Assembly: GCA_041737595.1 (NCBI GenBank) | Contig: JBGSRK010000017.1 | Coordinates: 1-29,837 of the forward strand | Origin: Patescibacteria group bacterium | GTDB lineage: Bacteria; Patescibacteriota; CPR2; UBA1875 | Length of the DNA: 29,837 bases | Reading direction: 5' to 3' | Shown: positions 3,308 to 21,997 of the stretch, in pieces | Position numbering within the stretch: position 1 is the stretch's first letter | Layout: each line of letters begins with the position of its first letter | Notes under the pieces: model-generated | The model's database searches: none | Told to the model about the DNA's origin: nothing | Seen by the model: only the letters and a program-made list of their open reading frames with translations | Program-made: the position numbers and the translations under genes

Positions 3308-6112
3308 GTGGATAAAATCGTCGTTCGCGGGGCACGCGAACATAATTTAAAGAACATAGATGTTACGATTCCTCGTGACAAAATGGTTGTTGTCACTGGA
3401 CTTTCTGGTTCAGGGAAATCATCTCTTGTATTCGACACTATTTATGCCGAAGGGCAGCGAAGATATGTTGAATCACTCTCTTCATATGCGCGACAATTTT
3501 TAGGTCTAATGGAAAAACCGGACGTAGATCAGATAGAGGGTCTTTCACCTGCTATTTCAATTGATCAAAAATCAACAACAAGAAATCCTCGTTCTACAGT
3601 TGGAACCGTCACAGAAGTTTATGATTATCTCCGTTTATTATTTGCAAGAATTGGTCATCCTCATTGCCCGCTATGTGGTAAGGAAATATCAAGACAAACA
3701 AACGAACAAATTGTTGAACAAATTATGGCGATGAAGCCAAAGACTAAAATTATGGTTATTGCACCAATTATAAAAGGCAAAAAAGGTGCTAATAAATATG
3801 TTTTTGAAGGTTTAAAAAAAGCTGGATATCAAAGAGTTAGAATAAATGGAAAAATTTTTGATATTGATGACAACTTTAATCTTAATAAAAATAAAAAACA
3901 CAATATTGACGTAGTAGTTGACCGTTTAATTATTAATAAAGATAATTTGAAACGTCTTTCTGAATCTGTTGAACAGGCCTTAAATTTAGGCGAAGGTTTA
4001 ATATATATAATTAATGTTGATAAAAATAAAGAAAATATTTTTTCACAAAATTTTGCTTGTCCGACTTGTGGAATAAATTTACCTGAAATATCCCCAAGAA
4101 GCTTTTCTTTTAATTCTCCATATGGGGCTTGTCCTGCCTGTACTGGTCTTGGGATAAAACTTGAAATTGACCCTGAATTAGTTGTTCCTAACCAAACATT
4201 AACAATTGCCGAGGGAGCAATTAGACCATGGGCCAGAACAACTGCCAAAATGGGTTGGTATACTCAAATTCTTATAGCAGTTGGAGAAAAATATGGTTTT
4301 TCAGCTAACACTCCATATAAAGAATTATCTAAAAAATCTCGTGATATTGTAATGTATGGCACAGATAAAGAAACTTTTAAGGTCCCTATGGGGCAACGAG
4401 AATACGAAACAACTTATGAGGGGGTTGTTGCAAATTTAGAACGTCGGTATAGGGAAACTGATTCAGATTATGTTAGAAAAGAAATTGAAAAATATATGGC
4501 TGAAGCTAAATGCCAGGTGTGTAAAGGGAAAAGACTAAAACCTGAATTTGGAGCTGTTACTATCGGTAAAACCACAATTGTTGATATTGTAAATATGCCA
4601 ATTGATAAGTGTAAAGAATATTTTGATAAACTCGAACTTTCAGAAAAAGAACAAAAAATTGCCCGTCAAATAATTAAAGAATTAAGAGAACGACTAGGAT
4701 TCCTTTTAAATGTTGGCCTTTCATATCTAACACTTGATAGAACGGCTGCTACTCTTTCTGGTGGGGAAGCTCAAAGAATTAGATTAGCTACTCAAATAGG
4801 GTCATCACTAATGGGAGTTTTATATATACTAGATGAACCTTCAATTGGACTTCACCAACGTGATAATGGAAAGCTAATAAATACCTTAAAAAAATTACGT
4901 GATTTAGGGAATACAGTAATTATTGTTGAACATGACGCTGAAACAATGGAGTCTGCAGATTGGTTGATTGATGTTGGTCCTGGGGCTGGAGAACATGGTG
5001 GTTATATTATTGCCGAAGGTACCCCAGAACAAGTGAAAAAAAATAAAAAATCACTTACTGGTCAATATTTATCAGGGTTAAAAACTGTAAACTGTTCAAC
5101 AAAAAGAAGAAAAGGGACAGGAGATACAATTGAAATAATTGGTGCAACTGAAAACAATCTTAAAAATATTAATGTTAAAATACCTCTTGGTAAAATGATA
5201 GTAGTGACTGGTGTTTCTGGTTCTGGGAAATCATCGCTTATAAATGATACTTTGGCAAAAAAACTTTCCAATGTTTATCACAGAGCTCAACATACTCCAG
5301 GCAAACATAAAGAAATAATAGGTTTAAAAAATCTTGATAAAGTAATTGATATTGACCAATCTCCAATTGGGAGGACTCCGCGTTCAAACCCAGCTACATA
5401 TACGGGAGTATTTACTGATATCCGCGAGTTATTTGCGGCGACTCCAGAAGCTAAAATGCGCGGGTATAAAGCTGGAAGATTTTCCTTCAATGTTAAGGGT
5501 GGACGGTGTGAAGCGTGTCATGGTGAAGGAATTCTTAAAATTGAGATGCACTTTTTACCAGATGTATATGTCACTTGTGAGGATTGTAAAGGAAAAAGAT
5601 ATAATAAGGAAGCGCTTGAAATACATTATAAGGGCAAAACAATTTCTGATGTTTTAAATATGACGGTTGAAGAAGCTCTCGAATTTTTTGGTAACATACC
5701 AAGTATAAAAGTTAAGTTATCAACACTATTTGAAGTCGGATTGGGTTACATCAGACTTGGCCAGCCTGCAACAACTCTTTCTGGTGGAGAAGCACAACGT
5801 GTAAAGCTAGCATCTGAGCTTTCCCGAACAGCAACCGGAAAAACTTTATATATTTTAGATGAACCGACAACTGGTTTACATTTTGATGATGTTAATCGTT
5901 TGATGGCAGTTTTGAATGCACTCGCAGATATGGGGAATACAGTTCTTGTAATTGAACATAACCTAGATGTTATTAAATGTGCAGATTGGATTATTGATCT
6001 AGGTCCCGAAGGAGGGGATATGGGTGGAGAGGTTGTTGCCCAAGGAACTCCAGAAGAACTTATTAAATCAGATATCTCATATACTGCTAAATATCTTAAA
6101 AAAGTTTTATAA
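3308..6112 (+). CDS. uvrA: Excinuclease ABC subunit A
   Basis: Two ABC ATPase modules ([26 protein letters not shown]) and CxxC zinc fingers. Start placed at GTG 3308 ([16 protein letters not shown]) after a GAGGAG SD, rather than ATG 3263. Confidence 0.98.
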
Positions 6113-9313: not shown

Positions 9314-9532
9314 ATGAAAACAACTTTTATAGTAATCCAGGTAATTACATTAATACTTATTATTATTACTGTTTTACTCCAACAAAAAGGAACGGGTCTT
9401 TCTTCTATGTTTGGGGCAAGTACTAATAATTTTCAAACTAAACGTGGAGCGGAAAAATTACTTTTCTACACCACTATAGTTTCTGCTTTAATATTTTTAA
9501 TAGTAACTCTTCTCCAACTTTTTTATAATTAG
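9314..9532 (+). CDS. secG: Preprotein translocase subunit SecG
   Basis: Two TM helices, VLLQQKGTGLSSMFG and KRGAEKLL motifs. Confidence 0.93.
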   Translation: MKTTFIVIQVITLILIIITVLLQQKGTGLSSMFGASTNNFQTKRGAEKLLFYTTIVSALIFLIVTLLQLFYN

Positions 9533-9569
9533 GCTGAATATTTAGATTAAATTTATTAGTCTTAATAAT

Positions 9570-11333
9570 ATGAACTTAAAATCAAAAATTAAAGATCTGG
9601 CAGAAAATATTAATAAAGTATTTAATAAATTACAAAATACTCATCTTTCTGATTTACAATCTTTTTATCGGAAATTTTTAAAAAGAATTCCAGATATTTT
9701 TCATTTAAAAAATATAGTATTAATCGGTGGTGGAGCATCGCTTTTAATATTTATACTTTTTAACCAAAGGTTTGAATCGTTATATAATTATTTACCTAAA
9801 GAGCCAGTTTCTGGTGGTATTTATACTGAGGGGGTTGTGGGAGAAATAAATCAATTAAACCCTCTATTTTCACAAACTAGTTCGGCTGAAATTGTTGTTG
9901 ATAATCTAATATTTTCAGGTTTAACAAAAAAAAATAATAAAAAACAAATTATTCCTGATTTGGCCGAAAAATGGGTAATATCGACTGACGGTAAGGTCTA
10001 TACATTTACATTAAAAAATAATATTTTTTGGCATGATAAAGAGCCTGTTACAGTTGATGATATATTATTTACAATAGAAACAATCCAGAACCCTGACACA
10101 AGAACCCCTCTTCTTAAAATTTGGAGAGGTGTAACACCAAAAAAAATAGATGATAAAACAATCTCATTTACGCTCGAAGAGCCATATTCAGGGTTTCTAT
10201 CTAATACTGAAGTATTAATTTTACCAAAACATATATTAGCTGATGTTCCTGCAAAAAGTCTTAAAACCGCAGAATTTAGTAATACTCCGATAGGAACGGG
10301 CCCATATATTTTTGAAAAAATAAAAAACATTAGAGATTCTCAAGAGGTTACACTTCTTTCTAATAAGAATTATTATAATCAAACCCCTTATATTGAAAAG
10401 GTAATAATAAAAACATATAATAATTTTTCTGATTTACCGCCTGCTTATGCTAGAAGAGAGATATTAGGATTAGAAAAAATAAATGGGGAAGAAGTATCGT
10501 ACGAGAATGAACTCCCAAACGCTAATACTTACAATTTAGCTATCCCCGAAACAGATACATTATATTTTAATCTCAGATCCGGTGTTTCTAAAGAAAAATT
10601 TTTACGTGAAGCAATAGCACTATCGATACCTAGAGATGAAATTATAAAAAAAGTTTATAATAATGATGCAATGCCAATATTTGCACCAATATTAACTGGT
10701 TATGTTGGTTATAATTCAAAACTCAAACAAAACATAGATACAGAAGCAGCAAAAAAGAAAATTTTAGATGCTGGCTATACACTTGATGCTAATAATATGA
10801 TGATAAAAGACGGTGAAATCTTAACTGTAAGACTTGTTTGTCTTGATGAATATAACAAAGTATTCGAAGCAGAAATAATTAAAGAAAATCTTAAAAAAAT
10901 TGGGATAAATATTGAAATTGAAAAATACCCCCGTGCATCTTTTTTCCAGGAATATGTAAAAAATAGAAATTTTGATATTCTTTTAATTTCACAAAATCTT
11001 GGTTTTAATTCTGATATATATTCTTTTTGGCATTCAACTCAAGTTAACGACCCAGGTTTAAATTTCTCAGGTCTTTCAGACAGAAAAGTTGATAAATTTT
11101 TAGAACAAGCCAGAACAACCCTAGATATCGAAAAAAGAAAACAAAGATATCAAGATGTCCAACAAATTATATTGGATGAGGTAGCATCATTGCCTTTAGT
11201 TTGGCCAAATTATATTTATGCAGTTTCTAGGGAAGTAAAAGGAATTTCTAATATGAAGCTTTCGGATCCAAAATATAGATTCTGGAATATTGAAAAATGG
11301 TACATCTACGATAAAAAAGCAACAATACTTTAA
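9570..11333 (+). CDS. Peptide/nickel ABC transporter substrate-binding protein (SBP family 5), membrane-anchored
   Basis: LNPLF, IPDLAEKW, WHDKEPVTVDDILFT, PIGTGPY motifs; N-terminal hydrophobic segment; no permease or ATPase nearby. Confidence 0.92.
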   Translation: MNLKSKIKDLAENINKVFNKLQNTHLSDLQSFYRKFLKRIPDIFHLKNIVLIGGGASLLIFILFNQRFESLYNYLPKEPVSGGIYTEGVVGEINQLNPLFSQTSSAEIVVDNLIFSGLTKKNNKKQIIPDLAEKWVISTDGKVYTFTLKNNIFWHDKEPVTVDDILFTIETIQNPDTRTPLLKIWRGVTPKKIDDKTISFTLEEPYSGFLSNTEVLILPKHILADVPAKSLKTAEFSNTPIGTGPYIFEKIKNIRDSQEVTLLSNKNYYNQTPYIEKVIIKTYNNFSDLPPAYARREILGLEKINGEEVSYENELPNANTYNLAIPETDTLYFNLRSGVSKEKFLREAIALSIPRDEIIKKVYNNDAMPIFAPILTGYVGYNSKLKQNIDTEAAKKKILDAGYTLDANNMMIKDGEILTVRLVCLDEYNKVFEAEIIKENLKKIGINIEIEKYPRASFFQEYVKNRNFDILLISQNLGFNSDIYSFWHSTQVNDPGLNFSGLSDRKVDKFLEQARTTLDIEKRKQRYQDVQQIILDEVASLPLVWPNYIYAVSREVKGISNMKLSDPKYRFWNIEKWYIYDKKATIL

Positions 11334-11355
11334 TTTATTGATAATTATAGATAGA

Positions 11356-11384
11356 TTGACTTTTAACCTCTAAAAGAATATAAT
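11356..11384 (+). promoter_or_regulatory. Sigma70-type promoter of the tRNA operon
   Basis: TTGACT-17 nt-TATAAT. Confidence 0.75.
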
Positions 11385-11442
11385 TTGATTGTTCTTAATC
11401 CTCTGGCAAAGGATTTTTTGTTTCTTAACACATTTTTTAGCT

Positions 11443-11542
11443 CAATTGAAATCTGTAGATTTTAATTGTAGAGGAGGCATAGCGAAAGAGATAAGCATTC
11501 GAAATTATTTTTGATGTGAATCTCGCCAGCGAATGCTGACGA
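11443..11542 (+). ncRNA. Putative structured tRNA-leader element, copy A (unknown family)
   Basis: Hairpin CAATTGAAATC-TGTA-GATTTTAATTG, linker TAGAGGA, nested stems GGCAT/ATGCT, GAGAT/ATCTC, GCAT/ATGT, tail GACGA abutting tRNA-Leu. Confidence 0.6.
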
Positions 11543-11629
11543 GGGGACGTGGTGGAACTGGTAGACACGCAAGATTGAGGTTCTTGTGGCCGTAAGGCTG
11601 TGGAAGTTCGAGTCTTCTCGTCCCCACCA
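11543..11629 (+). tRNA. tRNA-Leu (GAG)
   Basis: Acceptor GGGGACG/CGTCCCC, anticodon arm CAAGA-TTGAGGT-TCTTG, long variable arm, GTTCGAG, encoded CCA. Confidence 0.97.
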
Positions 11630-11701
11630 TCTTCAGGCAAAAAAATGAAATAATTTAAGTCTATGAATATTTTTAGCGTAATCTTATAGAAAACCTGACA
11701 T

Positions 11702-11777
11702 GGCGAGATAGCTCAGTTGGTAGAGCGAAGGACTGAAAATCCTTGCGTCCCCGGTTCAAGTCCGGGTCTCGCCACCA
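11702..11777 (+). tRNA. tRNA-Phe (GAA)
   Basis: Acceptor GGCGAGA/TCTCGCC, AAGGA-CTGAAAA-TCCTT, GTTCAAG, CCA; 76 nt. Confidence 0.97.
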
Positions 11778-11852
11778 GTTAAAAGTTTGTTATAGGCTTA
11801 TTGCCCTTCACAACTTTTCATTAATAATCATAATCATCAGATTTTGATTGAC

Positions 11853-11951
11853 CCGGAAAAATTTATTAATTTTTTCGGAAAAGGAAGCGTAGCAAAAGTG
11901 GAAAGTACTTATCACAAATAATGTACGATTCACAATAGATTACGCTGACGC
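11853..11951 (+). ncRNA. Putative structured tRNA-leader element, copy B
   Basis: Hairpin CCGGAAAAATT-TATT-AATTTTTTCGG, linker AAAAGGA, stems AGCGT/ACGCT, GTGGA/TTCAC, GTAC/GTAC, tail GACGC abutting tRNA-Val. Confidence 0.62.
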
Positions 11952-12028
11952 GGGCGCTTAGCTCAGTTGGCTAGAGCATCTCGTTTACACCGAGAGGGTC
12001 AGGGGTTCGAATCCCTTAGCGCCCACCA
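11952..12028 (+). tRNA. tRNA-Val (TAC)
   Basis: Acceptor GGGCGCT/AGCGCCC, TCTCG-TTTACAC-CGAGA, GTTCGAA, CCA. Confidence 0.97.
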
Positions 12029-12090
12029 GTTTCAAGGCAAATTATTTGGTTATAAAAATTTTATTTTTTATGCCCTATACCATCTTTAAC

Positions 12091-12187
12091 CCGGAAAAAT
12101 CTGTTGATTTTTTCGGAAGAGGAGGAATTGTGTTAGGATAAAAATGTGCAACAGCATCATTGTAATCCGAAAACAAATTCTGATGAT
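12091..12187 (+). ncRNA. Putative structured tRNA-leader element, copy C
   Basis: Hairpin CCGGAAAAATC-TGTT-GATTTTTTCGG, linker AAGAGGA, stems GGAAT/ATTCT, GGAT/ATCC, AATG/CATT, TGC/GCA, tail GATGAT abutting tRNA-Gly. Confidence 0.62.
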
Positions 12188-12263
12188 GCGAGAGTAGTTC
12201 AGTGGCTAGAACGTCTCCTTGCCAAGGAGAAGGTCGGGGGTTCGACTCCCCTCTCTCGCTCCA
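12188..12263 (+). tRNA. tRNA-Gly (GCC)
   Basis: Acceptor GCGAGAG/CTCTCGC, TCTCC-TTGCCAA-GGAGA, U73 discriminator, CCA. Confidence 0.97.
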
Positions 12264-12297
12264 AAATTTTTTAGTAGGGGATGATTATCGACGTTTT

Positions 12298-12371
12298 GGC
12301 GTCGTGGCGGAGTGGTTACGCAGCGGTCTGCAAAACCGTTTACCCCGGTTCAATTCCGGGCGACGCCTCCA
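12298..12371 (+). tRNA. tRNA-Cys (GCA)
   Basis: Acceptor GGCGTCG/CGACGCC, GCGGT-CTGCAAA-ACCGT, U73, CCA; 74 nt. Confidence 0.97.
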
Positions 12372-12384
12372 AAATTTATATAAT

Positions 12385-12469
12385 GGGCCGGTGGCGGAAC
12401 TGGTATACGCGCTGGACTTAAAATCCAGTGACTTCGGTCTTGAGGGTTCGAGTCCCTCCCGGCCCACCA
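12385..12469 (+). tRNA. tRNA-Leu (TAA)
   Basis: Acceptor GGGCCGG/CCGGCCC, CTGGA-CTTAAAA-TCCAG, variable arm, CCA. Confidence 0.97.
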
Positions 12470-12475
12470 TCAATT

Positions 12476-12499
12476 AACTCACCAAAAGGTGAGTTTTTT
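12476..12499 (+). terminator. Intrinsic terminator of the tRNA operon
   Basis: AACTCACC-AAAA-GGTGAGTT followed by a T tract. Confidence 0.85.
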
Positions 12500-12526
12500 G
12501 CTTTTTTACTTAATATATTGTAAAAT
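12498..12526 (+). promoter_or_regulatory. Putative promoter for the fabK pair
   Basis: TTGCTT-17 nt-TAAAAT. Confidence 0.5.
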
Positions 12527-12539
12527 ACTTTCGAATATC

Positions 12540-12561
12540 GAGGGTACCATCTGGTACCCTC
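12540..12561. promoter_or_regulatory. Operator-like inverted repeat upstream of fabK
   Basis: GAGGGTACCA-TC-TGGTACCCTC, perfect 10-bp arms, just downstream of the predicted transcription start. Confidence 0.5.
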
Positions 12562-12614
12562 TAACGATATATGTACCTCGACAGTTTGCTCAAAACGGAG
12601 GAAGGTGAATACAG

Positions 12615-13574
12615 ATGTACGAAAAGTGCCCGACCAGGGTCACTAAGATCTTGGATATCACAGTTCCGATTGTTCAAGGTGGCATGGCATGGACTTCGAC
12701 CGCAGAACTCGCTGCAGCCGTTTCCAATGCTGGTGGCCTAGGACAGATCGGTGCCGGACAAATGCCGACACAGATTCTACGAGACGAGATCCGTCGTGCC
12801 AAGGGGCTAACGGATAGACCTTTTGGGGTCAATCTGATGCTCCTTACACCGCATATCGACGAGCTTGTCGATATGGTCATCACAGAGCATGTTTATGCGG
12901 TGACAACTGGTGCTGGCAACCCCGGCAAGTATATGGATCGGCTCAAGTCAGCTGGCATAAAGGTGATGGCGGTTGTTCCGTCTACAGCGCTCGCGAAGCG
13001 TATGGAGTCGATCGGTGCTGACGCCATCATCGGAGAAGGTATGGAGGCAGGTGGCCACATTGGTGACCTCACCACCATGTGTCTCATCCCACAGCTTGTC
13101 GATGTCGTCACTATTCCTGTAATCGCTGCTGGCGGTATCGCCGACGGCAGGGGAATGGCAGCAGCTTTCGCTCTCGGAGCGGAAGGTGTACAAGTTGGAA
13201 CGAGATTCATGTGCGCTACTGAATGCACAATTCATCCGAATATCAAGGAGAGGGTGATCAAGGCCAAGGATCGTGACACAGTTGTTACGGGCCGTTGCAC
13301 CGGCCACCCGGTTCGGGTGATCAAAAACAAGCTTGCGCGCGAAGTCGCAGCTCTTGATCTCGAGAACAAGAAGAAAGAGATCGAGGAGCTCGGTACTGGC
13401 AAACTCGCTCTTGCGATGCGCGAAGGCGACACCGAGATGGGATCTCTTATGGCGGGGCAGTGCTCAGCTATGGTAAAGGAGATCCAACCCGCAGCTGTCA
13501 TTATCGAACAGATGCTTGACGGCTTCGTGTCGGCAGGACAGACGCTCTACAGCCAACTTCCGATAGGAGAGTGA
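12615..13574 (+). CDS. fabK: Enoyl-ACP reductase II (FMN-dependent)
   Basis: PIVQGGMAW, AVSNAGGLG, PFGVNLML, GAGNPGKY, EGMEAGGHIG, IAAGGIADGRG, GHPVR, GSLMAGQ; GGAGGAAGG SD. Confidence 0.92.
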   Translation: MYEKCPTRVTKILDITVPIVQGGMAWTSTAELAAAVSNAGGLGQIGAGQMPTQILRDEIRRAKGLTDRPFGVNLMLLTPHIDELVDMVITEHVYAVTTGAGNPGKYMDRLKSAGIKVMAVVPSTALAKRMESIGADAIIGEGMEAGGHIGDLTTMCLIPQLVDVVTIPVIAAGGIADGRGMAAAFALGAEGVQVGTRFMCATECTIHPNIKERVIKAKDRDTVVTGRCTGHPVRVIKNKLAREVAALDLENKKKEIEELGTGKLALAMREGDTEMGSLMAGQCSAMVKEIQPAAVIIEQMLDGFVSAGQTLYSQLPIGE

Positions 13575-13578
13575 GGAC

Positions 13579-14622
13579 ATGTTCCCAACACTTACTATCG
13601 GAGACAAGGCAGTGAAGTACGCTATTGTTCAGGGAGGTATGGCAGTTCGCATCTCGAAGTCTGCGGTAGCGGCTGCTGTCGCCAATGCAGGTAGTATCGG
13701 TACTATAGGTGCCTCGGGAATGACGGTCGAAGAGCTTCGAGGCGAGATAAGACACGCAAAGAAGCTGCTTGTGGCGCCCGAACAAGGATTGATCGCAGTA
13801 AACATCATGCGAGCGATTCGCGAGTTCAAGACGCTACTCACGGTCTGTATCGAGGAGAACGTTGATATCGTCTTCATCGGTGCAGGCCTCATCGATCGTT
13901 GGGTGGTCGAGATGACGGAGGGAACCAACACCCTGATCGTCCCGATCATCTCCAGGGCTGGTGTTCTCAAGGTTCTCGTGAAGCGCGAGGGTATCATCCC
14001 GGCAGCTATCGTCGCTGAAAGTTGGGAAGCAGGCGGTCACCTCGGAACGAAAGGTCCCGAAGGTACCACCACCGCTGTTCTAGCTGAAGTGCTCGATGCG
14101 ATCGAGAAGCTCGGCCTCAACATCCCAGTGATTGCTGCTGGTGGCATCCGAACGGGCGAAGACTGCAAAATGCTCATCGATATGGGTGCAGCTGGAGTCC
14201 AGCTCGGTATCCCATTCGCTCTTACCGACGAGGTTCGTGAGACCGCACCTGGATGGCAAGATGTGCTACTGAGAGTTACCGAAGAGATCGTCACTGGAGG
14301 TGACTTTGGGCCTGGAAGTCCTACCGGATATCCTGGTCGTTACGCTGTCACGCCTGTGATCGAGAAGCTCATAGCGGATGGAGTCGTTCACTTTGGTGAT
14401 AAGCGTCCGCACTGCGAAGCAAGTTGTCTCGAGAAGTGCGCTTACCGCGACTCCAGATTTCAGGAGAGCCTCTGTATCTTCAGGCATCTCGTCGCCGGTC
14501 AGGAAGGGGACTACGAAAACGGTCTCTTTTTCACCGGATCTGGTATCGACGTACTCGACACCATCAAGCCTGCAGCTGCCATTATCGATCAGCTGGTCGA
14601 GGAGTACGACGTAGCCAAGTGA
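13579..14622 (+). CDS. Nitronate monooxygenase/FabK-fold flavoprotein with C-terminal [4Fe-4S] motif (FabX/UfaA-like)
   Basis: IVQGGM, EAGGHLG, IPVIAAGGI, SPTGYPGR and CEASCLEKC-x11-C..GLFFTG (Cx3Cx3Cx11C). Confidence 0.85.
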   Translation: MFPTLTIGDKAVKYAIVQGGMAVRISKSAVAAAVANAGSIGTIGASGMTVEELRGEIRHAKKLLVAPEQGLIAVNIMRAIREFKTLLTVCIEENVDIVFIGAGLIDRWVVEMTEGTNTLIVPIISRAGVLKVLVKREGIIPAAIVAESWEAGGHLGTKGPEGTTTAVLAEVLDAIEKLGLNIPVIAAGGIRTGEDCKMLIDMGAAGVQLGIPFALTDEVRETAPGWQDVLLRVTEEIVTGGDFGPGSPTGYPGRYAVTPVIEKLIADGVVHFGDKRPHCEASCLEKCAYRDSRFQESLCIFRHLVAGQEGDYENGLFFTGSGIDVLDTIKPAAAIIDQLVEEYDVAK

Positions 14623-14640
14623 GCAACTGCCTGCAATACA

Positions 14641-14701
14641 CCCGCCAAGGGGTACATGACCTAGAAGGTCCGTCGTGTACTCTGCGGCGGGCTTTCTTTT
14701 T
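14641..14701 (+). terminator. Long bulged hairpin with T tract closing the fabK pair
   Basis: Nested stems CCCGCC/GGCGGG, GGGGTACA/TGTACTCT, GACC/GGTC, then CTTTCTTTTT. Confidence 0.65.
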
Positions 14702-14842
14702 GTAAATACTTAATTTTATTTTAACCAGCATTATAGACACACCATGAACTTAATCATATAATTAGTTTATAAATTTGAGGATTATATAACACAAGAAAGA
14801 CTTAGTAACGAAGACTCTTATAAAGAAGGCAAGGTTGTTAAA

Positions 14843-16060
14843 ATGATTGCTGAGCAATTTTCTAATGTTCGAAACAGCACCTTACCAAGTAAACAAGACT
14901 ATAATCGAGCTGAAAAAGTTTTTGAAGAGAAAATAGTTGAAGACCCAGAAGGTTCCCAAGAATCTATAGATAGAATCTATGAAGATGATGAAAATTATCC
15001 CATGATTCGTGATTTAGAATCCGAAAAAGCAGAAGTTATTCCTGAAATGGAATTATTAATATCAGAAGCTGTTGAGTTAATAAAGCCAGTAATAGAGAAA
15101 CTTTATCCTGAAATTGCCAATGATTTTACTCAAGATTTATTTAAAATTGTTGATGGTGAAACTGTTGAACATCGAGAAGTTGAAGGTCGATCTTCCCTTA
15201 GAATTGAATTAGGGGCTATATTAAAAGATAAATTTGATTTTGATATGTTATCGGAGATAGGAGATTTATCTATATGTTCAGCAACTTCATATGCTGAAGA
15301 CGGTGTTGTTTATGTTAATTTTAAAGATGTCAGAAGAAGTATTTTGGAATTCCAAAATCAATTAAAAGACCCTCGTTTTAGAGAATATACACCTGAACAA
15401 ATTAGAGAAATGAAAGTCCAGGATATTTCTAATATGTTGTCACATGAATTTATTCATTTATCTGCTAAGCCACAAGAAATTTTAGATACTACAAAGAGAA
15501 ATGCATATGCTGATCATATAATTGCAAATTTTATTGATCAATTTATTCCATTAATTGTAAAAGATAAAGAAATATTAGAAGCTGATGTTTCATCTGTTTT
15601 AAAAGAATTTTTTCAGAAATTTTATGATGATAATAATGATTTGAGGCCCGAATATCATATTATTATTATGGGAGGCAGAATCCAAATACGTGATCAGAAA
15701 AACCTCCAAATTATTGGCACAGGTTATGAACTAAATGAAGAAATTACAGAACTTCTTAACGAAAAAATTCTTAGAGAAGTTTCGAAAATTAGCCAAGATT
15801 CTGACGATTATTCAATTGATTATTATATCTCTAGAATCAGAGACGATCGTAGACGAGGCGCTGGCCAAGTTAGAGGGAAAAGTACATCATCAAAAAATAT
15901 GATTATAAATCCAGAAGAAGCAGAGTTAATTTTAGAAAAAATATCAAAGGGTGAAAATTTAGATTATACCGTTAATGGTAATAACCTAATGCAAGTTTTT
16001 CTTTCAGGCAAACTCATTGATCTTTTAGCCAAATATGATCTATCAAATTATATACGCTAA
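14843..16060 (+). CDS. Hypothetical acidic protein with zincin/gluzincin-like motifs
   Basis: LSHEFIH (HExxH) and a downstream LNEEITE; 405-aa ORF. Confidence 0.7.
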   Translation: MIAEQFSNVRNSTLPSKQDYNRAEKVFEEKIVEDPEGSQESIDRIYEDDENYPMIRDLESEKAEVIPEMELLISEAVELIKPVIEKLYPEIANDFTQDLFKIVDGETVEHREVEGRSSLRIELGAILKDKFDFDMLSEIGDLSICSATSYAEDGVVYVNFKDVRRSILEFQNQLKDPRFREYTPEQIREMKVQDISNMLSHEFIHLSAKPQEILDTTKRNAYADHIIANFIDQFIPLIVKDKEILEADVSSVLKEFFQKFYDDNNDLRPEYHIIIMGGRIQIRDQKNLQIIGTGYELNEEITELLNEKILREVSKISQDSDDYSIDYYISRIRDDRRRGAGQVRGKSTSSKNMIINPEEAELILEKISKGENLDYTVNGNNLMQVFLSGKLIDLLAKYDLSNYIR

Positions 16061-16137
16061 AATTTTTACTCCAAAAAAATAGTTGCCTTGTGTAACTATT
16101 TTTATTTTCAAAATATAAGTGTATAATTATTTCTGAT

Positions 16138-16650
16138 ATGACAAAAACTGATAAGACATCAAAAAAAGAAGAAAAAACCGAAAAACCAGCAATAGTTATT
16201 AAAGAAACTGAAGAAGATGTTGTCTTGGGTTCTGGTTTTACGGGCGATCCAGATGAATTTAAAGATGAAATAAAAAAAGAAGCGGCGAAAGGGGATTTAG
16301 TAAAAAAATTCTTTATACCGCTTTTTGTCTTTTTAATTATTGGTGGGGGAGTTGGCTTTGCAACTTGGTATTATGCTAGACCAGAGAAAACTGTTCCTAA
16401 AACAGAAGAAAAAATTCAAACACCGCCAACAGTTGATGAGACAAAAGAAGAAACCCCCGCAGTGGTTACTCCAACCACTTCTGAGCCAGTTGAAAAGAAA
16501 GAAACTTCATATACTGTTATAGAAGGTGATACACTTTCTAGTATTGCGAATGCAAATGGTATGACATCTACTGAACTTGCGACATATAATAATATTACAG
16601 ATGTTAATAGCCTCCATATTGGTCAGGTAATTAAAATCCCAGCAAAATAG
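16138..16650 (+). CDS. Membrane-anchored LysM peptidoglycan-binding protein
   Basis: Single TM, T/P/E-rich linker, C-terminal YTVIEGDTLSSIA...N.L.IGQVIKIP. Confidence 0.93.
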   Translation: MTKTDKTSKKEEKTEKPAIVIKETEEDVVLGSGFTGDPDEFKDEIKKEAAKGDLVKKFFIPLFVFLIIGGGVGFATWYYARPEKTVPKTEEKIQTPPTVDETKEETPAVVTPTTSEPVEKKETSYTVIEGDTLSSIANANGMTSTELATYNNITDVNSLHIGQVIKIPAK

Positions 16651-16718
16651 TTTTTTAGTTATTTTGCCTTTGACATTTAGTACTTTTAGTATCAATATAT
16701 AAATAGATATAGTTTAAT

Positions 16719-16781
16719 GTTATCCTTAGAAAAAATATAAATCGAAGGATCAAAAAAATTTCAGGCAAGCCTGGAATGACA
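16719..16781. repeat. Degenerate REP-like elements upstream of lemA
   Basis: GTTATCCTTAG...CGAAGGATC followed by ATTTCAGGC-AA-GCCTGGAAT-GACA; similar to the 23097-23208 units. Confidence 0.55.
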
Positions 16782-16796
16782 AAAAAGGAGTTTTAC

Positions 16797-17366
16797 ATGA
16801 GTTTATTATTATGGATTGTACTAGGTTTAGCACTAGTAGTTGGTGGTTTTTTAGTTTCTGTTTATAACGGGCTAATTAGCTTGAAGACAAGGGCTCAAAA
16901 CGCAGAAAAAGATATTGATGTTCAATTAAAAAGAAGATTTGAACTTATCCCTAATTTAGTAGAAACAGTAAAGGGTTATGCAAAACATGAAAAGGGGACT
17001 CTTGAAAAAGTAACAGCTGCAAGAGCGGGGCTTACTACAGGTTCAATGAAAGAAAAAGTAGCATCAAATAATATGCTTGCTGAGACATTGAAATCTCTTT
17101 TTGCCGTTGCAGAAAGCTATCCAGATCTTAAAGCTAACCAAGGTTTTTTAGATCTCCAAACACAACTTACAGAAACACAAGATAAAATAATGGGTTCACA
17201 AAGATATTACAATGCATACGTACAACAATATGATGAAAGAGTCCAACAATTCCCAACAAACATAGTTGCTGGGATGTTTGGATTTCATGAAAAAGACTTT
17301 GAATATCTAGACGTTGCTGATAATGAAAAAGCCAACGTCAAAGTTGATTTTTCTGAAAAAGAATAA
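16797..17366 (+). CDS. lemA: LemA family protein
   Basis: IDVQLKRRFELIPNLVETVKGYAKHE, AESYPDLKAN, FPTNIVA. Start moved to ATG 16797 after AAGGAG; the ATG at 16776 lies inside the repeat. Confidence 0.95.
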   Translation: MSLLLWIVLGLALVVGGFLVSVYNGLISLKTRAQNAEKDIDVQLKRRFELIPNLVETVKGYAKHEKGTLEKVTAARAGLTTGSMKEKVASNNMLAETLKSLFAVAESYPDLKANQGFLDLQTQLTETQDKIMGSQRYYNAYVQQYDERVQQFPTNIVAGMFGFHEKDFEYLDVADNEKANVKVDFSEKE

Positions 17367-17390
17367 ATCATAGCTTTAAAAGGAGACACG

Positions 17391-17888
17391 ATGGCAAAAA
17401 GTTTCACATTAAGCACAGCTCTCCAAATATTTTATACAGCTTTTTTAGGACTTATTATAGCTTTGTTCTTTGGTTTAGGGGTTGGAGCTTTTTATGAATC
17501 TCCTAAAATGCCAGAATCACCTTCATATTCAGAACCAATAAAAGAATCGACAGTTGAGACGCCAGAGGATAAAACTGCAAGACTGAAATTTGATTCAGAT
17601 CAGAAAAAATATGAAGAGGATTTTAAATTATACAGTCGAAATGTATCAATAATAACAACCATTTTTGCAGTAATAACATTAGTATTTGCTCTTTTTGTTG
17701 TCCATAACGTTTTTATTATTTCAGACGGGTTACTTTTAGGGGCTGTTTTTACTCTTGGTTATAGTATTATTCGAGGGTTAATGACAGAGGATGTAAAATT
17801 TAGATTTATTATTGTCACCGTTGGTCTTATTATCACAATTGCAGTTGGCTATTTCAAATTTATAAAACCTCAAAAAGAAATTAAATAA
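17391..17888 (+). CDS. Hypothetical membrane protein (about 4 TM)
   Basis: Four hydrophobic segments with one soluble loop; AAGGAG SD. Confidence 0.85.
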   Translation: MAKSFTLSTALQIFYTAFLGLIIALFFGLGVGAFYESPKMPESPSYSEPIKESTVETPEDKTARLKFDSDQKKYEEDFKLYSRNVSIITTIFAVITLVFALFVVHNVFIISDGLLLGAVFTLGYSIIRGLMTEDVKFRFIIVTVGLIITIAVGYFKFIKPQKEIK

Positions 17889-17906
17889 CAATTGAAAGGA
17901 TTTTTT

Positions 17907-18158
17907 ATGAGTGAAAAAAAATTAGGGGTCATAACTCATTATTTTGATCATTTAAAAGTTGGGATAATAAAAGTAAGTAGCCCAATAAAAGTTGGTGATA
18001 AAGTATATATAAAAGGTCATACTACAGACTTCAAACAAGAAATTACTGAAATCCAGCTTGAACATGAATCAATCGAAACAGCTAAAAAAGGGCAAGAAGT
18101 TGGGATTAAGGTAAAAAAAATAGTTAGAGAAGGTGATCAAGTACTCGCAGCTGAATAA
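17907..18158 (+). CDS. Translation-factor domain II-like / peptidase U32 C-terminal-like beta-barrel protein
   Basis: GVITHYF..KVG, GHTTDFKQ, AKKGQEVGIK, VREGDQV; start at ATG 17907 after AAGGA. Confidence 0.85.
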   Translation: MSEKKLGVITHYFDHLKVGIIKVSSPIKVGDKVYIKGHTTDFKQEITEIQLEHESIETAKKGQEVGIKVKKIVREGDQVLAAE

Positions 18159-18204
18159 AATTAATCAAAAACTCCTGACTTCGGCCAGGAGTTTTTGATT
18201 AATT
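18159..18204. terminator. Bidirectional terminator
   Basis: AATTAATCAAAAACTCCTG...CAGGAGTTTTTGATTAATT, 19-bp arms around a CTTCGG loop. Confidence 0.8.
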
Positions 18205-18331
18205 AATCTGTGTCGACTTCTGTGCTATTATCAATATTGTCGAGCATTGAATCTGTTTGTAACTGATCCGCAGCAGCTTTACCGGTTTTTAAAACACCAA
18301 TTTTCCTTAAAAAGTCCAAAAATTTCCCCAT
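18203..18331 (-). CDS. Small protein (42 aa) with N-terminal amphipathic helix
   Basis: MGKFLDFLRKIGVLKTGKAAADQLQTDSMLDNIDNSTEVDTD; AAGGAG SD 5 nt upstream; the stop abuts the bidirectional terminator. Confidence 0.7.
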   Translation of the reverse strand: MGKFLDFLRKIGVLKTGKAAADQLQTDSMLDNIDNSTEVDTD

Positions 18332-18439
18332 AACTTCTCCTTATTAATTAATTCTATATACATTTTAAGTATTTATACTAAAAAGGTAAACATTTTCATA
18401 ATCATGGGTTAATATATAAATATAAGGGAGTTAAAAAAA

Positions 18440-19207
18440 ATGAAATGGCCAAATTATATTGCATTTGTGAGACATGATGTTTCTGCTTATAATCAATTAA
18501 AAATTAACCGTGCCAAAAATTCAGACTACCAAAAGTTTTTAGAATACTTTGAAAAAGACCCTACTTGTTCCAAGACCAAGGTTATGGCGGAGGAGATGAG
18601 CGAAATATATCGTTTGACCCAGGGTGATCATGATACACCCCTAGCTAATAATGGGGTGCAAGCAAAAAAAGCAGGAAAAAACCTAAAAAATGATATAGAA
18701 CTCCCAGATGTAATATATGTTTCTCCATATTTGAGAACTCGTGAAACTTTAAAAAAACTTATTGAAGGATGGCCAGAGCTGGTAAATGTTCGAGTGGTAG
18801 AGGATGAGCGCATACGGGAGCAGGAACATGGTTTGTATACTATCTACAATGACTGGAAGGTATTCTATACTCTATATCCTGAGCAAAAAAGGCTTCACGA
18901 TATCTCTGGTGACTACTGGTATCGTTGGCCTCAGGGTGAGAATGTTTCAGATGTGCGATTAAGAATAAAATCATGGTTTGATACGATAGTGCGTGACTAC
19001 TCAGGTATGAATGTTCTGGTAGTTACACATCATCTGACTATTTTGGCTCTTCGGGCGAACCTAGAGCGTCTGTCGGCAGATGGCTTTATAGATATGAATG
19101 AGAACGACAAGCCGATTAATGCTGGAGTAACTCTCTATCGAGGTGATCCTCTTAAAGGCAAGAATGGTAAACTTATTTTAGATTATTATAATAAAAAGTT
19201 TTATTGA
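18440..19207 (+). CDS. Histidine phosphatase / phosphoglycerate mutase family protein
   Basis: FVRHD (RHG variant), SPYLRTRET, RIREQEHG, PQGEN, VLVVTH. Confidence 0.9.
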   Translation: MKWPNYIAFVRHDVSAYNQLKINRAKNSDYQKFLEYFEKDPTCSKTKVMAEEMSEIYRLTQGDHDTPLANNGVQAKKAGKNLKNDIELPDVIYVSPYLRTRETLKKLIEGWPELVNVRVVEDERIREQEHGLYTIYNDWKVFYTLYPEQKRLHDISGDYWYRWPQGENVSDVRLRIKSWFDTIVRDYSGMNVLVVTHHLTILALRANLERLSADGFIDMNENDKPINAGVTLYRGDPLKGKNGKLILDYYNKKFY

Positions 19208-19220
19208 AAAGAAAGGTATT

Positions 19221-19997
19221 ATGAAAATAACAATTTTAGGAACAGGTACTTTTTATGTAACAAATGAAAGATCTGCACAGTCGTATTTAATTGAAACAAA
19301 TAATAAAAAGATATTAATTGATTGTGGGCCTGGGACATTAAAACAATTAGCTAAAATTGGTCTTAAGCCAGATGATATAGATTATATTTTTTTAAGTCAT
19401 TTCCATGCAGACCATACAAGTGATTTATTCGCATTCCAAATGAACTTTCGTTTAAAAGATTTTTTTAGTGATGAGAAAGATTATAAAACTCCAATAATTT
19501 ATGGGCCAAAGGGGATTGAGGAATTTACTAGAAAACTTTCACATGTTTATCAACTCCCAGCTTTTGATAATTATGATCGTATTAAATATGTTCCCTATAA
19601 TAATCAAGAAATTATAGTTGATAATTTAAGAATTAATACTTTTGGGGTGTCTCATAACGCTTTTGGGGTACAGGCAGATGCTTTTTCTATAAGAATTGAA
19701 GAAAATAATAAAGTCTTTGTCTACTCAGGAGATACAATAAAATGTGAAGGTGTAGAAAAAGCTTCAGAAAATGCAGATATTTTTATTTGTGATGCATCAT
19801 ATTCAAAAGGTAAGGGCGGAGCTGCTCATATGGATACCTTAGACATTGGCGAAATTGCTGAAAAAAGTAATGTAAAAAAAGTAATATTAACGCATTTTTA
19901 TCCAAACACAAACTCAGTTGATCTTTGCGCTGAAGTAAAAGAAAAATTTAACGGTGAAGTTGTTCGAGGGGAAGATTTAATGGAGATAAAATTATAA
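19221..19997 (+). CDS. Metallo-beta-lactamase-fold hydrolase (RNase Z/BN-like)
   Basis: ILGTG, LIDCGPG, SHFHADH, YSGDT, ILTHFYP motifs. Confidence 0.9.
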   Translation: MKITILGTGTFYVTNERSAQSYLIETNNKKILIDCGPGTLKQLAKIGLKPDDIDYIFLSHFHADHTSDLFAFQMNFRLKDFFSDEKDYKTPIIYGPKGIEEFTRKLSHVYQLPAFDNYDRIKYVPYNNQEIIVDNLRINTFGVSHNAFGVQADAFSIRIEENNKVFVYSGDTIKCEGVEKASENADIFICDASYSKGKGGAAHMDTLDIGEIAEKSNVKKVILTHFYPNTNSVDLCAEVKEKFNGEVVRGEDLMEIKL

Positions 19998-20019
19998 TTA
20001 CGCTAAAAGAGGTAAATTT

Positions 20020-20991
20020 TTGCTTTTAACAATATTATTACTCATTTTAGGGTTAATTTTATTAATATATGGTGGGAATCTTGTTGTTGACGGTTCTACC
20101 ACTTTTGCCACAAGGATGAAAATCCCGTCACTTATAATTGGGTTAACAATAGTTGCCTTTGGTACAAGTATCCCAGAGCTTTTTGTCACAATGGTTTCAG
20201 CAAGCGAAAAAGCAGGTGAGCTTGCTTTTTCTGATATTATTGGTAGTAATATTGCAAATACATTACTTATACTCGGTATTGCAGCAATTATTTGCCCAAT
20301 AATCGCAAATAGTAAGTTAATAAAAAAGAATCTTAGTTATTTAGTTTTTGTGACTTTTATTTTTTGGTTATTATCCGATAAAATCTTTATTGGACAGAAT
20401 GCAATCGCATTAGGTTTATTAGGTTCAACTCTTTTATTAATTTCATTTATAATTTTCGTTTATTCACAAACTAAACATATTTTAAATAATAAGAATGAAG
20501 AACCGCTTCTAATTGATTATAAAAAAATTCAAAAATTTTATGCAAAAAACGGTACAACTTTTTTTGCAATAATATCTGGTTTTGTCTTATTGTTTTTTGG
20601 ATCAAGGTTTGTGGTTGATAATGCTCTTTCTATTGCTAAATATTTTTCTTTAACAGAGGGGTTTATTGGTCTTACAATTGTTTCAATTGGGACTTCACTA
20701 CCCGAATTAGCAACAATTATAATTGCTGGGGTTAAAAAAGAAGGTGGAGTAATGTTGGGTAACATAATTGGAACAAATATATTTAATCTCGCCTTTGTTT
20801 TAGGGCTTTCTGGTTTTGCTTACGGCGTGTCTGCTCACACATATCTCAGATATGATATTATATTTCTCCTAGTAATCACCCTAATACTCTATTTTATAGT
20901 TATTAGAAAAAAGGTAATAACTAAAAGTGCAGGGTATTTAATGCTTATAACTTATATTTCTTATTTGAGTTATGTTTTTATTAGAGGATAA
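20020..20991 (+). CDS. Calcium/sodium antiporter (YrbG/CaCA family)
   Basis: Repeated GTSIPEL/GTSLPEL and IIGSNI/IIGTNI alpha motifs; about 10 TM; TTG start after GAGG. Confidence 0.93.
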   Translation: MLLTILLLILGLILLIYGGNLVVDGSTTFATRMKIPSLIIGLTIVAFGTSIPELFVTMVSASEKAGELAFSDIIGSNIANTLLILGIAAIICPIIANSKLIKKNLSYLVFVTFIFWLLSDKIFIGQNAIALGLLGSTLLLISFIIFVYSQTKHILNNKNEEPLLIDYKKIQKFYAKNGTTFFAIISGFVLLFFGSRFVVDNALSIAKYFSLTEGFIGLTIVSIGTSLPELATIIIAGVKKEGGVMLGNIIGTNIFNLAFVLGLSGFAYGVSAHTYLRYDIIFLLVITLILYFIVIRKKVITKSAGYLMLITYISYLSYVFIRG

Positions 20992-21014
20992 TAGATAAAG
21001 AAAAAGGAGTTAAA

Positions 21015-21275
21015 ATGAGCGGTGAGAAATATTCAGGTTCAGAATCTAAACAAGAATTAGAAGAGTATAAGCTTAATATGCAAATTAATTCAATGGGTTT
21101 ATCTGATAGATCTTATAATTTGCTGGATAGAGCTGATATAAAAACACTCAGACAAATTACACAATGTGCTTCAACTGATCTTTTAAATATTAGGAACTTT
21201 GGGCCAAACCAAGTAGAAGAGGTACGTGAAAAACTTCATGAAATTGGACTTAAATTATTGGATGAGAGTGAATAA
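21015..21275 (+). CDS. Stand-alone RNA polymerase alpha C-terminal domain protein
   Basis: LSDRSYNLL..ADIKTL....DLLNIRNFG...VEEVREKL...GLKL; AAGGAG SD; no alpha N-terminal domain. Confidence 0.85.
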   Translation: MSGEKYSGSESKQELEEYKLNMQINSMGLSDRSYNLLDRADIKTLRQITQCASTDLLNIRNFGPNQVEEVREKLHEIGLKLLDESE

Positions 21276-21733
21276 TGGATTTAAAAGAATTAGAACAATT
21301 TTTCTATATTGCAAGATCGAAGACTTATGCGGCAGATGGTAAAAAGATGAAAGCACTTTTGTCTGGTTCTGATCAATTTGAGTATAAAGATGGTGACTGG
21401 TTATATAGAGATGTATATTACACTGGGAAGAATAAATTTACTGGGCTTGAGGCTATATATTATAAAAATAAACCCGTATTTTCAGTTAGTTATTACGGCA
21501 ATTGGGGTAAAATGACTGAAAAAGAAATTGATAATATTTTACGGGGTGCATTAATAGCTAACTATGAAACTAGGAGTTATAAACATATAAAATGGCAAAA
21601 AGATGATTTCAAATATGATTGCATCCCAGATTCATTCTCAAAATCAATAAATGAGATAGGTGGTTATGAATCTATCGCTAAAAACGGGGAAGAAATTTAT
21701 AAGTTTTATTATGGTGGAAGTATTTTAATATAA
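21275..21733 (+). CDS. DUF5680-like protein
   Basis: TYA.DG, YRDVY, G.E.IY...PVF...YYG, G.E.I..NG...Y...Y.GG pattern, recognised from memory. Confidence 0.7.
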   Translation: MDLKELEQFFYIARSKTYAADGKKMKALLSGSDQFEYKDGDWLYRDVYYTGKNKFTGLEAIYYKNKPVFSVSYYGNWGKMTEKEIDNILRGALIANYETRSYKHIKWQKDDFKYDCIPDSFSKSINEIGGYESIAKNGEEIYKFYYGGSILI

Positions 21734-21744
21734 AGGAGTTAAAA

Positions 21745-21987: not shown

Positions 21988-21997
21988 ATTAGAATTT

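Follow-up and report, generated by a model that had tools for sequence, protein, structure and literature searches.

A two-gene island behind a tRNA array

What lies behind the tRNA array of this small Patescibacteria genome? The stretch of DNA analyzed here (hereafter, the window) is an entire contig of 29,837 nt (C120; JBGSRK010000017.1) from a 1.09-Mb metagenome-assembled genome (MAG) in 143 contigs (G000; GCA_041737595.1). It carries an island of two tandem + strand genes—gene 1, fabK, and gene 2, encoding a FabX-like flavoenzyme of the nitronate monooxygenase (NMO)/FabK/FabX superfamily—set between six tRNA genes and a host open reading frame (ORF). An earlier annotation made from the sequence alone (the first-pass annotation) had singled out these genes as a GC-rich unit directly behind the terminator of the tRNA operon, with ribosome-binding sites and a terminator of its own, and each of these elements was recovered. 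The features of the locus are as follows (FMN, flavin mononucleotide; GC3, GC content at third codon positions; ACP, acyl carrier protein).

11543-12469, + strand: six-tRNA array (Leu-gag, Phe, Val, Gly, Cys, Leu-taa), by ARAGORN and Rfam tRNA matches
12470-14712, + strand: acquired island of 2243 nt (leader, two genes, terminator), absent from a relative (run X3, below) and unlike the host in GC and GC3
12476-12495, + strand: intrinsic terminator, hairpin plus T-run, closing the tRNA operon (scan; fold -13.8 kcal/mol, z -5.4)
12540-12561, + strand: perfect 10+10 palindrome in the fabK leader, GAGGGTACCA-tc-TGGTACCCTC (read directly; fold -18.1 kcal/mol, z -4.7)
12597-12605, + strand: Shine-Dalgarno sequence of gene 1, GGAGGAAGG, 9 nt 5' of the ATG (read directly)
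12615-13574, + strand: gene 1, fabK, FMN/NADH enoyl-ACP reductase II, 319 aa (P0001), by TIGR03151 and PDB 7l00
13565-13569, + strand: Shine-Dalgarno sequence of gene 2, AGGAG, within the 3' end of gene 1 (read directly)
13579-14622, + strand: gene 2, 347 aa (P0002), FMN TIM-barrel protein (NMO/FabK/FabX superfamily) whose C-terminal domain has four cysteines, by PF03060, with FabX as best PDB match
14038-14040, + strand: codon of His154 (EAGGH), aligned with catalytic His182 of FabX and invariant in 56 sequences
14413-14475, + strand: codons of C279-x3-C283-x3-C287-x11-C299, predicted [4Fe-4S] ligands, aligned with FabX C300/C304/C308/C320
14641-14706, + strand: long GC-rich hairpin plus T-run, terminator of the two-gene unit (scan, 14663-14697 plus T-run; fold -31.9 kcal/mol, z -3.5)
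14843-16060, + strand: host ORF of 405 aa with no family match, the right landmark; a homolog follows the tRNA-Leu slot in relatives

The composition of the island sets it apart from its surroundings. In 500-nt windows, GC content is 0.498-0.560 across the island (12501-14500) compared with 0.258-0.296 on its left (9501-11500) and 0.288-0.302 on its right (15001-16000), and GC3 is 0.566 in gene 1 and 0.572 in gene 2, whereas ten host genes of the window range from 0.163 to 0.227. The 3' end of tRNA-Leu(taa), the last gene of the array, is the left landmark of the insertion; gene 1 starts 146 nt downstream, and its stop codon lies 4 nt ahead of the gene 2 ATG. Because the scan returned two terminator-like sites in total, not above the 3.1 expected from shuffled sequence, the case for the two terminators rests on their position and fold. 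The leader palindrome, which follows the tRNA terminator and precedes the ribosome-binding site of gene 1, may be an operator or a leader hairpin; an Rfam search of 11300-14900 returned tRNAs only and placed no family there.

Is the insertion real, or could it be a chimera? We placed independently built contigs from three public runs on positions 10500-16800 of the window: X1, which is possibly the source sample and so not fully independent; X2, another sample of the same study; and X3, from a different study. In X1, one contig spans 12303-14675 and another 14648-16800, bridging both junctions with >31 nt on each side at depths of 10.7 and 9.24, compared with 7.62 for the left flank. The unit is thus foreign by GC3 and not chimeric at ~12.5 and ~14.7 kb, the two places at which the first-pass annotation had thought a misjoin conceivable. 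X2 holds pieces of the island and its flanks that are identical to the window (depth 4-6.8); none crosses a junction, and they speak for co-occurrence only. In X3, a 3.7-kb contig that is ~87% identical to the right flank passes from 12469, where tRNA-Leu ends, to 14713 across 24 letters of other sequence; on one side this joint rests on 30 nt of tRNA, the least that can be trusted. Another X3 contig, equally deep, stops precisely at 12469. The contig joining 12469 to 14713 is an empty site. X3 also contains low-depth pieces resembling the island (96.5-97.7% identity in fabK, ~88-89% in gene 2) that are not assignable to a genome and contrast with the ~87% identical, empty-site backbone of the X3 relative.

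Both flanks of the island belong to the same low-GC genome and are syntenic with relatives, and the stretch around the island (12184-23096) has no match on any other contig of the bin. In a genome of the same family (G001), the slot between tRNA-Leu(taa) and the homolog of the 405-aa ORF (35% identical) holds radical-SAM and GNAT genes instead (L095, G001:C3 7702-9087); the slot is a hot spot for cargo. Together, the empty site in X3 and the different cargo in G001 identify 12470-14712 as an insertion in a variable slot, and its foreign origin follows from the GC3 contrast, the other cargo in the G001 slot, and the lack of any homolog of the pair in same-family genomes (0/4). The 2.2-kb two-gene island downstream of the tRNA array is real and recently acquired, and we are highly confident of its identity and acquisition taken together.

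Searches of mobile DNA gave no island-like sequence. No relative of either protein was found in the viral contigs searched, and the 136 plasmid records that match gene 2 all do so at <60% identity. Full-length relatives of gene 2 (~37.5% identity), which the records call nitronate monooxygenase, occur on large plasmids of Bacillus mycoides, B. thuringiensis, and B. cereus. Within the tRNA array, copies of a 38-nt direct repeat (87% identical; 11848-11885 and 12086-12123) stand before tRNA-Val and tRNA-Gly, and a 32-nt element in front of the array (11449-11480) is related to them; all of these probably serve the tRNA cluster as recurring promoter or processing signals.

FabK and its four-cysteine partner

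Which enzymes does the island encode? The reading of gene 1 as FabK, already proposed in the first-pass annotation, holds: its product scores 460.2 bits on the FabK equivalog model TIGR03151, above the cutoff of 453.1; matches Clostridioides difficile FabK (7l00) end to end (E 1.2e-115); and retains 61/61 columns that are invariant among 22 FabKs, including E144, G146, G147, and H148 of the E-x-GGH motif. Its best 119 homologs are 73-81% identical, and all seven that name an organism are Coriobacteriia or Anaerosomatales; identity to Coriobacteriia FabKs is 75-81%. Among the 21 best loci in named genomes (70-79% identity, best segment), 19 are from Coriobacteriia/Actinomycetes MAGs or "uncultured Eubacteriales," and the other two are a metagenome chromosome (L015) and Coriobacteriaceae bacterium EMTCatB1 (L021). 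We built two maximum-likelihood (ML) trees, a quick one of 121 rows and a careful one of 46 rows, and gene 1 groups with Coriobacteriia-type FabKs in both (support 97* and 99/96, respectively). Judged by its sequence, gene 1 is a bona fide NADH/FMN enoyl reductase FabK of the Coriobacteriia type. It shares model, full-length alignment, and histidine motif with known FabKs (TIGR03151; 7L00 from C. difficile and 2Z6I from Streptococcus pneumoniae). Unlike those systems, it lies outside any fab cluster, in a host genome in which neither ACP nor other fab genes were detected, whereas its nearest relatives sit within plsX-fabH-fabK-fabD-fabG-acpP-...-fabF.

Gene 2 belongs to the same superfamily and is not a FabK. 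It scores 125.2 bits on the NMO family model PF03060 and fails the FabK model TIGR03151 (117.3 bits). The motifs reported in the first-pass annotation are all present—EAGGH (H154), C279-x3-C283-x3-C287-x11-C299, and GLFFTG—and the best PDB match by sequence is Helicobacter pylori FabX (7E1Q; E 3.6e-27). An AlphaFold model (AF2; pLDDT 94.0, pTM 0.93) likewise has FabX as its predicted best fold match (TM-score 0.85, root-mean-square deviation 2.5 A) ahead of FabKs (TM-score 0.74-0.77), with 26-27% identity to FabX in structural alignments; other structural matches include the NADH:quinone reductase PA1024 and nitronate monooxygenases. According to the available text of its description, FabX (HP0773) is a [4Fe-4S]/FMN acyl-ACP dehydrogenase/isomerase with catalytic His182 and with C300, C304, C308, and C320 as cluster ligands (PMC8626469). 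C279, C283, C287, and C299 of gene 2 align with these four cysteines, and FabX N99, E175, G180, H182, G221, and Q240 are matched as well; T243 is replaced by Ile and A242 by Gly. In an alignment of 56 sequences spanning both cysteine-bearing clades, N75, E147, G153, H154, and the four cysteines of gene 2 are invariant. Sequence and model thus describe gene 2 as an FMN flavoenzyme in which a predicted four-cysteine [4Fe-4S] domain takes the place of FabK's NAD(P)H-binding part, as in FabX. The likeness to FabX extends to the fold, the spacing and positions of the cysteines, the FMN-site residues, and the C-terminal cluster domain; the differences include that gene 2 is ~20 residues shorter between residues 49 and 71 and has no type II fatty-acid synthase (FAS II) around it. 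A predicted complex of FabK with gene 2 scored 0.00, a value that carries no weight for or against an interaction.

Is gene 2 then a FabX? The cysteine spacing does not decide the matter. A four-cysteine motif occurs in 204 of 268 proteins from the homology searches in ~19 different spacings (Cx2Cx3Cx4C 103 times, Cx3Cx3Cx11C 8 times), so the spacing shared with FabX is a loop-length variant and not a family signature. Close relatives are few: the top three in a set of 5.8 billion clustered proteins share 71, 45, and 42% identity with gene 2, after which matches crowd around 40%, and only 32 of 1.84 billion representatives reach E 1e-30. A metagenome scan with gene 2 found no relative, and one with its relative P0004 found only the contig from which P0004 comes (L090). 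Both trees contain three groups—FabK; clade C, which holds the FabX ortholog proxy P0196 (E 7e-139 to 7e1q) and has support 100/99; and clade B. Gene 2 falls in a rare six-member subclade with P0003 (its closest relative, 71% identical), P0004, P0005, P0122, and P0027 (100/99), which has a long CxxRDS-type loop and is sister to P0128/P0006/P0013 (98/95) inside clade B. On profiles of clades B and C built without this subclade, all six members score 46-62 bits higher with clade B (312 vs. 252 for gene 2). Joining the subclade to clade C in the tree is not rejected by an approximately unbiased (AU) test (delta lnL 2.9, p 0.424). On these sequence comparisons, gene 2 is most likely a member of clade B, an uncharacterized sister clade of FabX. 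The label "FabX-type" given in the first-pass annotation therefore stands for cysteine spacing and fold and gives way on kinship: "FabX-like, probably of the sister clade" is the better description. The authors of the FabX study, in the text available, required >50% identity of a FabX homolog (PMC8626469), and gene 2 lies well below that figure.

What are the clade B enzymes of other bacteria? In 19 of the 21 Coriobacteriia-type loci, an intact paralog with the cysteine motif lies ~2.1 kb 3' of fabK on the same strand and is 37-42% identical to gene 2; of the other two loci, one has a split paralog and the other is cut off by the contig end. The split copy (L027 13064-13991, a Coriobacteriales MAG; q2-92 and q93-343) is either a frameshift or an assembly error. 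A second family member occurs in 4 of the other 59 loci. In L021 the order is plsX-fabH-fabK-fabD-fabG-acpP-CysNMO-fabF, where CysNMO is the cysteine-bearing paralog, and five Coriobacteriia-type genomes have one FabA/FabZ-family gene each. The position between ACP and FabF suggests that the clade B enzyme acts on acyl-ACP, and it may have a FabX-like role in unsaturated fatty-acid synthesis. The paralogs of Coriobacteriia and other Gram-positive-type anaerobes, named nitronate monooxygenase or NAD(P)H-dependent flavin oxidoreductase in databases, share with gene 2 the four cysteines and the catalytic histidine; gene 2 groups with them in both ML trees and gains 55-60 bits on their profile. 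Unlike gene 2, those of the fab clusters have a short Cx2Cx3Cx4C loop and sit between acpP and fabF; gene 2 is directly 3' of fabK with neither acpP nor fabF beside it.

A parallel from the FabX clade itself comes from Fusobacterium nucleatum. This organism also has both FabK and a cysteine-bearing paralog, C4N14_08920, which differs from gene 2 in being a true FabX-clade member (50.8% identical to FabX) beside a complete FAS II; when overexpressed, it partly offsets inhibition of FabK, which indicates that both kinds of enzyme encounter common substrates (PMC11091888). The available part of that source concerns the F. nucleatum FabX homolog and not clade B.

The host genome and related modules in other Patescibacteria

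Which organism carries the island? Among the five UvrB matches that name an organism, three are "Patescibacteria group bacterium" and two "bacterium," and the genomes of the host's relatives in a genome search measure 0.5-1.3 Mb, with one of 2.0 Mb. The names of the UvrB matches, the small genomes of the relatives, and the absence of FAS II genes together identify the host, from sequence, as a member of the Patescibacteria (candidate phyla radiation, CPR) with a genome of roughly 1 Mb and without FAS II, in keeping with the CPR affiliation of the first-pass annotation. Family searches of the MAG, whose completeness is estimated at 96.9%, returned no ketoacyl synthase (KS), FabA/FabZ, AcpS, PlsY, or DegV/FakB, and phmmer searches of all six-frame ORFs with Coriobacteriia PlsX, FabH, FabD, ACP, and FabF and with CPR PlsX and ACP returned a generic short-chain dehydrogenase/reductase only; the earlier remark that no other fab gene or ACP lies near the pair thus extends to the genome as assembled. 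At that completeness, FAS II genes are likely absent from the host. What the genome does contain is a FadD-like fatty-acid ligase (C108:75216-76412) and, on a core contig, a single weak match to an acyltransferase; the single PP-binding match of the bin is on C30, a contig of 68% GC. A published account, of which part was available, states that Patescibacteria lack fatty-acid synthesis and recycle lipids, acpP and a lysophospholipase having been gained by transfer (PMC12455944).

Is the pair, then, confined to this one genome? An adjacent pair recurs in a few other Patescibacteria, in the following contexts.

G030 (L092, G030:C26): uvrB-uvrA-...-fabK-CysNMO-ACP-uvrC-yvcK-SBP5
G029 (L091, G029:C4): plsX-fabK-like-CysNMO-82aa-uvrC-yvcK-SBP5
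G093 (L101, G093:C2): ACP-ACP-fabK-CysNMO
L090 (metagenome contig; carries P0004, 45% identical to gene 2): NMO-like-P0004-uvrC-yvcK-SBP5

The surroundings recall those of the window, whose backbone is uvrB-uvrA-uvrC-yvcK-secG-SBP5; there, nothing lies between uvrA and uvrC, and the pair sits ~1 kb beyond, after the tRNA array. The UvrC of L090 is 54% identical to that of the window, and its pair has a GC3 of 0.69-0.76 vs. 0.44-0.50 in the flanks. The first gene has drifted far from FabK in L090 (98.7 bits) and G029 (branch 2.8). In G029, the 82-aa ORF (L091:3753-4001) occupies the position of ACP; it has no Pfam match and, by eye, Ala in place of the phosphopantetheine Ser. Among five CPR genomes that bear the pair or FabK (G029, G030, G093, G015, and G023; four of them 91-97% complete), none has a ketoacyl synthase (0/5) or an AcpS-family match, and G023 alone has a FabA/FabZ match. 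The order plsX...fabK...(ACP)...CysNMO matches that of the Coriobacteriia cluster once fabH, fabD, fabG, and fabF are taken out, and direct adjacency of fabK and the cysteine paralog was seen only in CPR contexts. The pair is therefore a rare but recurrent module—FabK plus a cysteine-bearing flavoenzyme, sometimes joined by ACP or PlsX—found in a few Patescibacteria that lack the synthase, not a one-off, and it looks like a stripped-down Gram-positive fab cluster. The available text on Minisyncoccus archaeiphilus describes orphan AccC, FabK, FabG, and a FabA-like protein, whose role its authors call unclear (PMC12281837). Like our host, it is a CPR organism with FabK and without complete fatty-acid synthesis; the FabK of the window differs in its [4Fe-4S] flavoenzyme partner, its foreign composition, its empty-site relative, and the lack of a FabG or FabA-like neighbor.

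The bin holds other GC-rich DNA as well. About 100 short contigs at 48-69% GC look like contamination, so that the bin is impure. Contig C91 (3942 nt) repeats window positions 1-3528 at 88-92% nucleotide identity, and a UvrB fragment is 97% identical in protein; the repeat of the window start indicates a second strain in the bin. Further GC-rich islands, with GC3 of 0.55-0.61, near that of the fabK pair, occur on low-GC core contigs:

G000 C67:70381-71682: GC-rich island, HisS
G000 C67:77307-80388: GC-rich island, PurB, PurE, PurC
G000 C71:4594-7920: GC-rich island, ThyX-like protein, dTMP kinase, dCTP deaminase

A Coriobacteriia origin for the other islands with a GC3 of 0.57 was considered and rejected, the best matches of HisS and dCTP deaminase in five such genomes being only 28-32% identical. 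By these comparisons, the HisS and dCTP deaminase islands are of an origin other than that of fabK.

Possible roles of the pair

What could two fatty-acyl redox enzymes do in a host without FAS II? The best explanation overall, to which we assign a probability of about one-half, combines the acquired island and the enzyme identities given above with a role for the pair in editing the saturation of scavenged acyl thioesters. Gene 2 would oxidize an acyl thioester to the trans-2-enoyl form, passing electrons via FMN and the cluster, and perhaps isomerize trans-2-enoyl to cis-3; FabK would reduce trans-2-enoyl with NADH. The two enzymes would then oppose each other at the C2-C3 bond of long-chain acyl thioesters and together set the saturation state of scavenged chains. 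The carrier in this host would have to be CoA, its esters coming from the one FadD-like ligase, or else an ACP missing from the assembly; in other CPR genomes it would be ACP where one is present. This chain of steps is offered tentatively, and taken by itself we give it somewhat less than even odds.

Several results weigh against an acyl-editing role or against the way in which we think the island arrived. No ACP, AcpS, PlsX, PlsY, or FakB was found in the MAG, so that the natural carrier for both enzyme families is missing. FabX R164 and T130, described in the available text as pivotal for ACP recognition and conserved in FabX homologs and not in FabKs (PMC8626469), are not kept in gene 2: T130 is replaced by Asp, and R164 falls within a 4-residue deletion. 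Without a condensing enzyme, a cis-3 bond is not movable to the usual positions, and the gain from a delta-2 or delta-3 bond is limited. The pair is also rare. A homolog of either protein occurs in 9 of 60 relatives and, at E 1e-10, in 14 of 400 evenly drawn Patescibacteria genomes, and the tandem pair occurs in 3 of the 400 (G029, G030, and G093). The two genes disagree about their source: fabK is 75-81% and gene 2 only 37-42% identical to its counterpart in the same Coriobacteriia clusters, a mismatch in donor identity despite the common composition and near-fused arrangement of the genes, and no donor with the exact pair of fabK and gene 2 was found. The window contains no integrase or transposase ORF, and the best flanking direct repeat, the 8-nt TACTTAAT, is at chance level (equalled in 638 of 2000 shuffles). 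Finally, the promoter that the first-pass annotation had ascribed to the unit did not materialize, since a sigma-70 consensus scan found no + strand site within 12496-12614; a weak TTGCTT-17-TAAAAT can be read by eye ahead of gene 1.

How do other explanations fare? The main rival is a role in redox chemistry outside lipid metabolism, with the pair as general flavin oxidoreductases—for NADH oxidation or as an electron sink, as nitronate or quinone reductases, or exchanging electrons with ferredoxin through the [4Fe-4S] cluster—that regenerate NAD+ or help the cell cope with oxygen. The lack of ACP, AcpS, and PlsX in the host genome fits such a role, as do the PA1024 and nitronate monooxygenase folds among the structural matches, the superoxide that FabX itself is reported to yield from O2 in the text available (PMC8626469), and the distance of the first gene from FabK in L090 and G029. 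Against it, gene 1 passes the strict FabK cutoff with all 61 invariant columns kept, the pair adjoins ACP or PlsX in other CPR genomes, and the sister-clade enzyme stands between acpP and fabF in Coriobacteriia; we consider this role unlikely. Improbable, to our mind, is that the island is recent neutral cargo, gained in passing at a hot-spot slot, without a role in the host and due to be lost. Unameliorated GC3, a variable slot (empty in X3, radical SAM and GNAT in G001), missing partner genes such as ACP, and the lack of a promoter passing the scan would all be expected of such cargo, but neither ORF is broken, ribosome-binding sites and a terminator are in place, every family-invariant residue is retained, the island is identical in a second sample (X2), and a similar pair persists in four or more other CPR contexts. 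Useless DNA is seldom retained in small genomes, which also counts against this view.

Three further explanations have much less to recommend them. The pair could belong to a complete FAS II whose remaining genes lie in gaps of the MAG, which is fragmented into 143 contigs and whose completeness is an estimate; partial fab sets are described in some Patescibacteria in the available text of PMC12281837. Yet searches gave no KS, FabD, FabH, FabZ, ACP, AcpS, or PlsX; the five other CPR genomes with the pair or FabK, four of them nearly complete, have no KS either; and the island consists of two genes only, between two terminators, all of which makes a hidden pathway very unlikely. Slimmer still is the chance that gene 2 is a true FabX ortholog making cis-3-decenoyl-ACP for unsaturated fatty acids as in H. 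pylori: the identical cysteine spacing, the rank of FabX as best solved match, and the AU test leave room for it, whereas the low identity (27%), the loss of R164 and T130, and the preference of ML trees and profiles (6/6 members) for clade B oppose it, and the host has no FabZ, FabF/B, or ACP that could supply the enzyme or lengthen what it makes. Least credible of all is an assembly chimera or bin contamination, with GC-rich DNA joined to a CPR contig. The bin does contain the short GC-rich contigs and a second strain, and X1 is possibly the source sample; nevertheless, a separate assembly bridges both junctions at flank-like depth, X2 has island and flanks at matching low depth, the flanks are of one low-GC genome syntenic with relatives, no other bin contig matches the island, and the GC content of the island (0.545) differs from the 0.66-0.67 of Coriobacteriia fabK genes.

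What would editing of scavenged acyl thioesters mean for these bacteria? Patescibacteria are believed to rely on other cells for their lipids, which raises the question of how their membranes are shaped. The island is a well-documented gain of two fatty-acyl redox enzymes by a lipid-dependent Patescibacteria genome, and even if the enzymes were general oxidoreductases, it would still be a clean case of tRNA-adjacent gene gain in a reduced genome. The pair and its recurrence beside ACP and PlsX make it a concrete candidate for acyl-chain editing without synthesis. On a broader and decidedly speculative view, which we think unlikely as a whole, synthase-less, lipid-scavenging Patescibacteria would keep or reacquire a minimal leftover of a Gram-positive fab cluster, made up of FabK and a [4Fe-4S] FabX-like dehydrogenase and in some cases ACP and PlsX, to add or remove a double bond in full-length scavenged chains without condensation or oxygen, thereby letting an episymbiont tune its membrane fluidity, and the same clade would supply the missing enzyme of anaerobic unsaturated fatty-acid synthesis in Coriobacteriia and related anaerobes, whose genomes have only one FabZ-type dehydratase. 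FabX's large, uncharacterized sister clade, which sits within fab clusters of Coriobacteriia and of other anaerobes, could be the route by which these organisms make unsaturated fatty acids.

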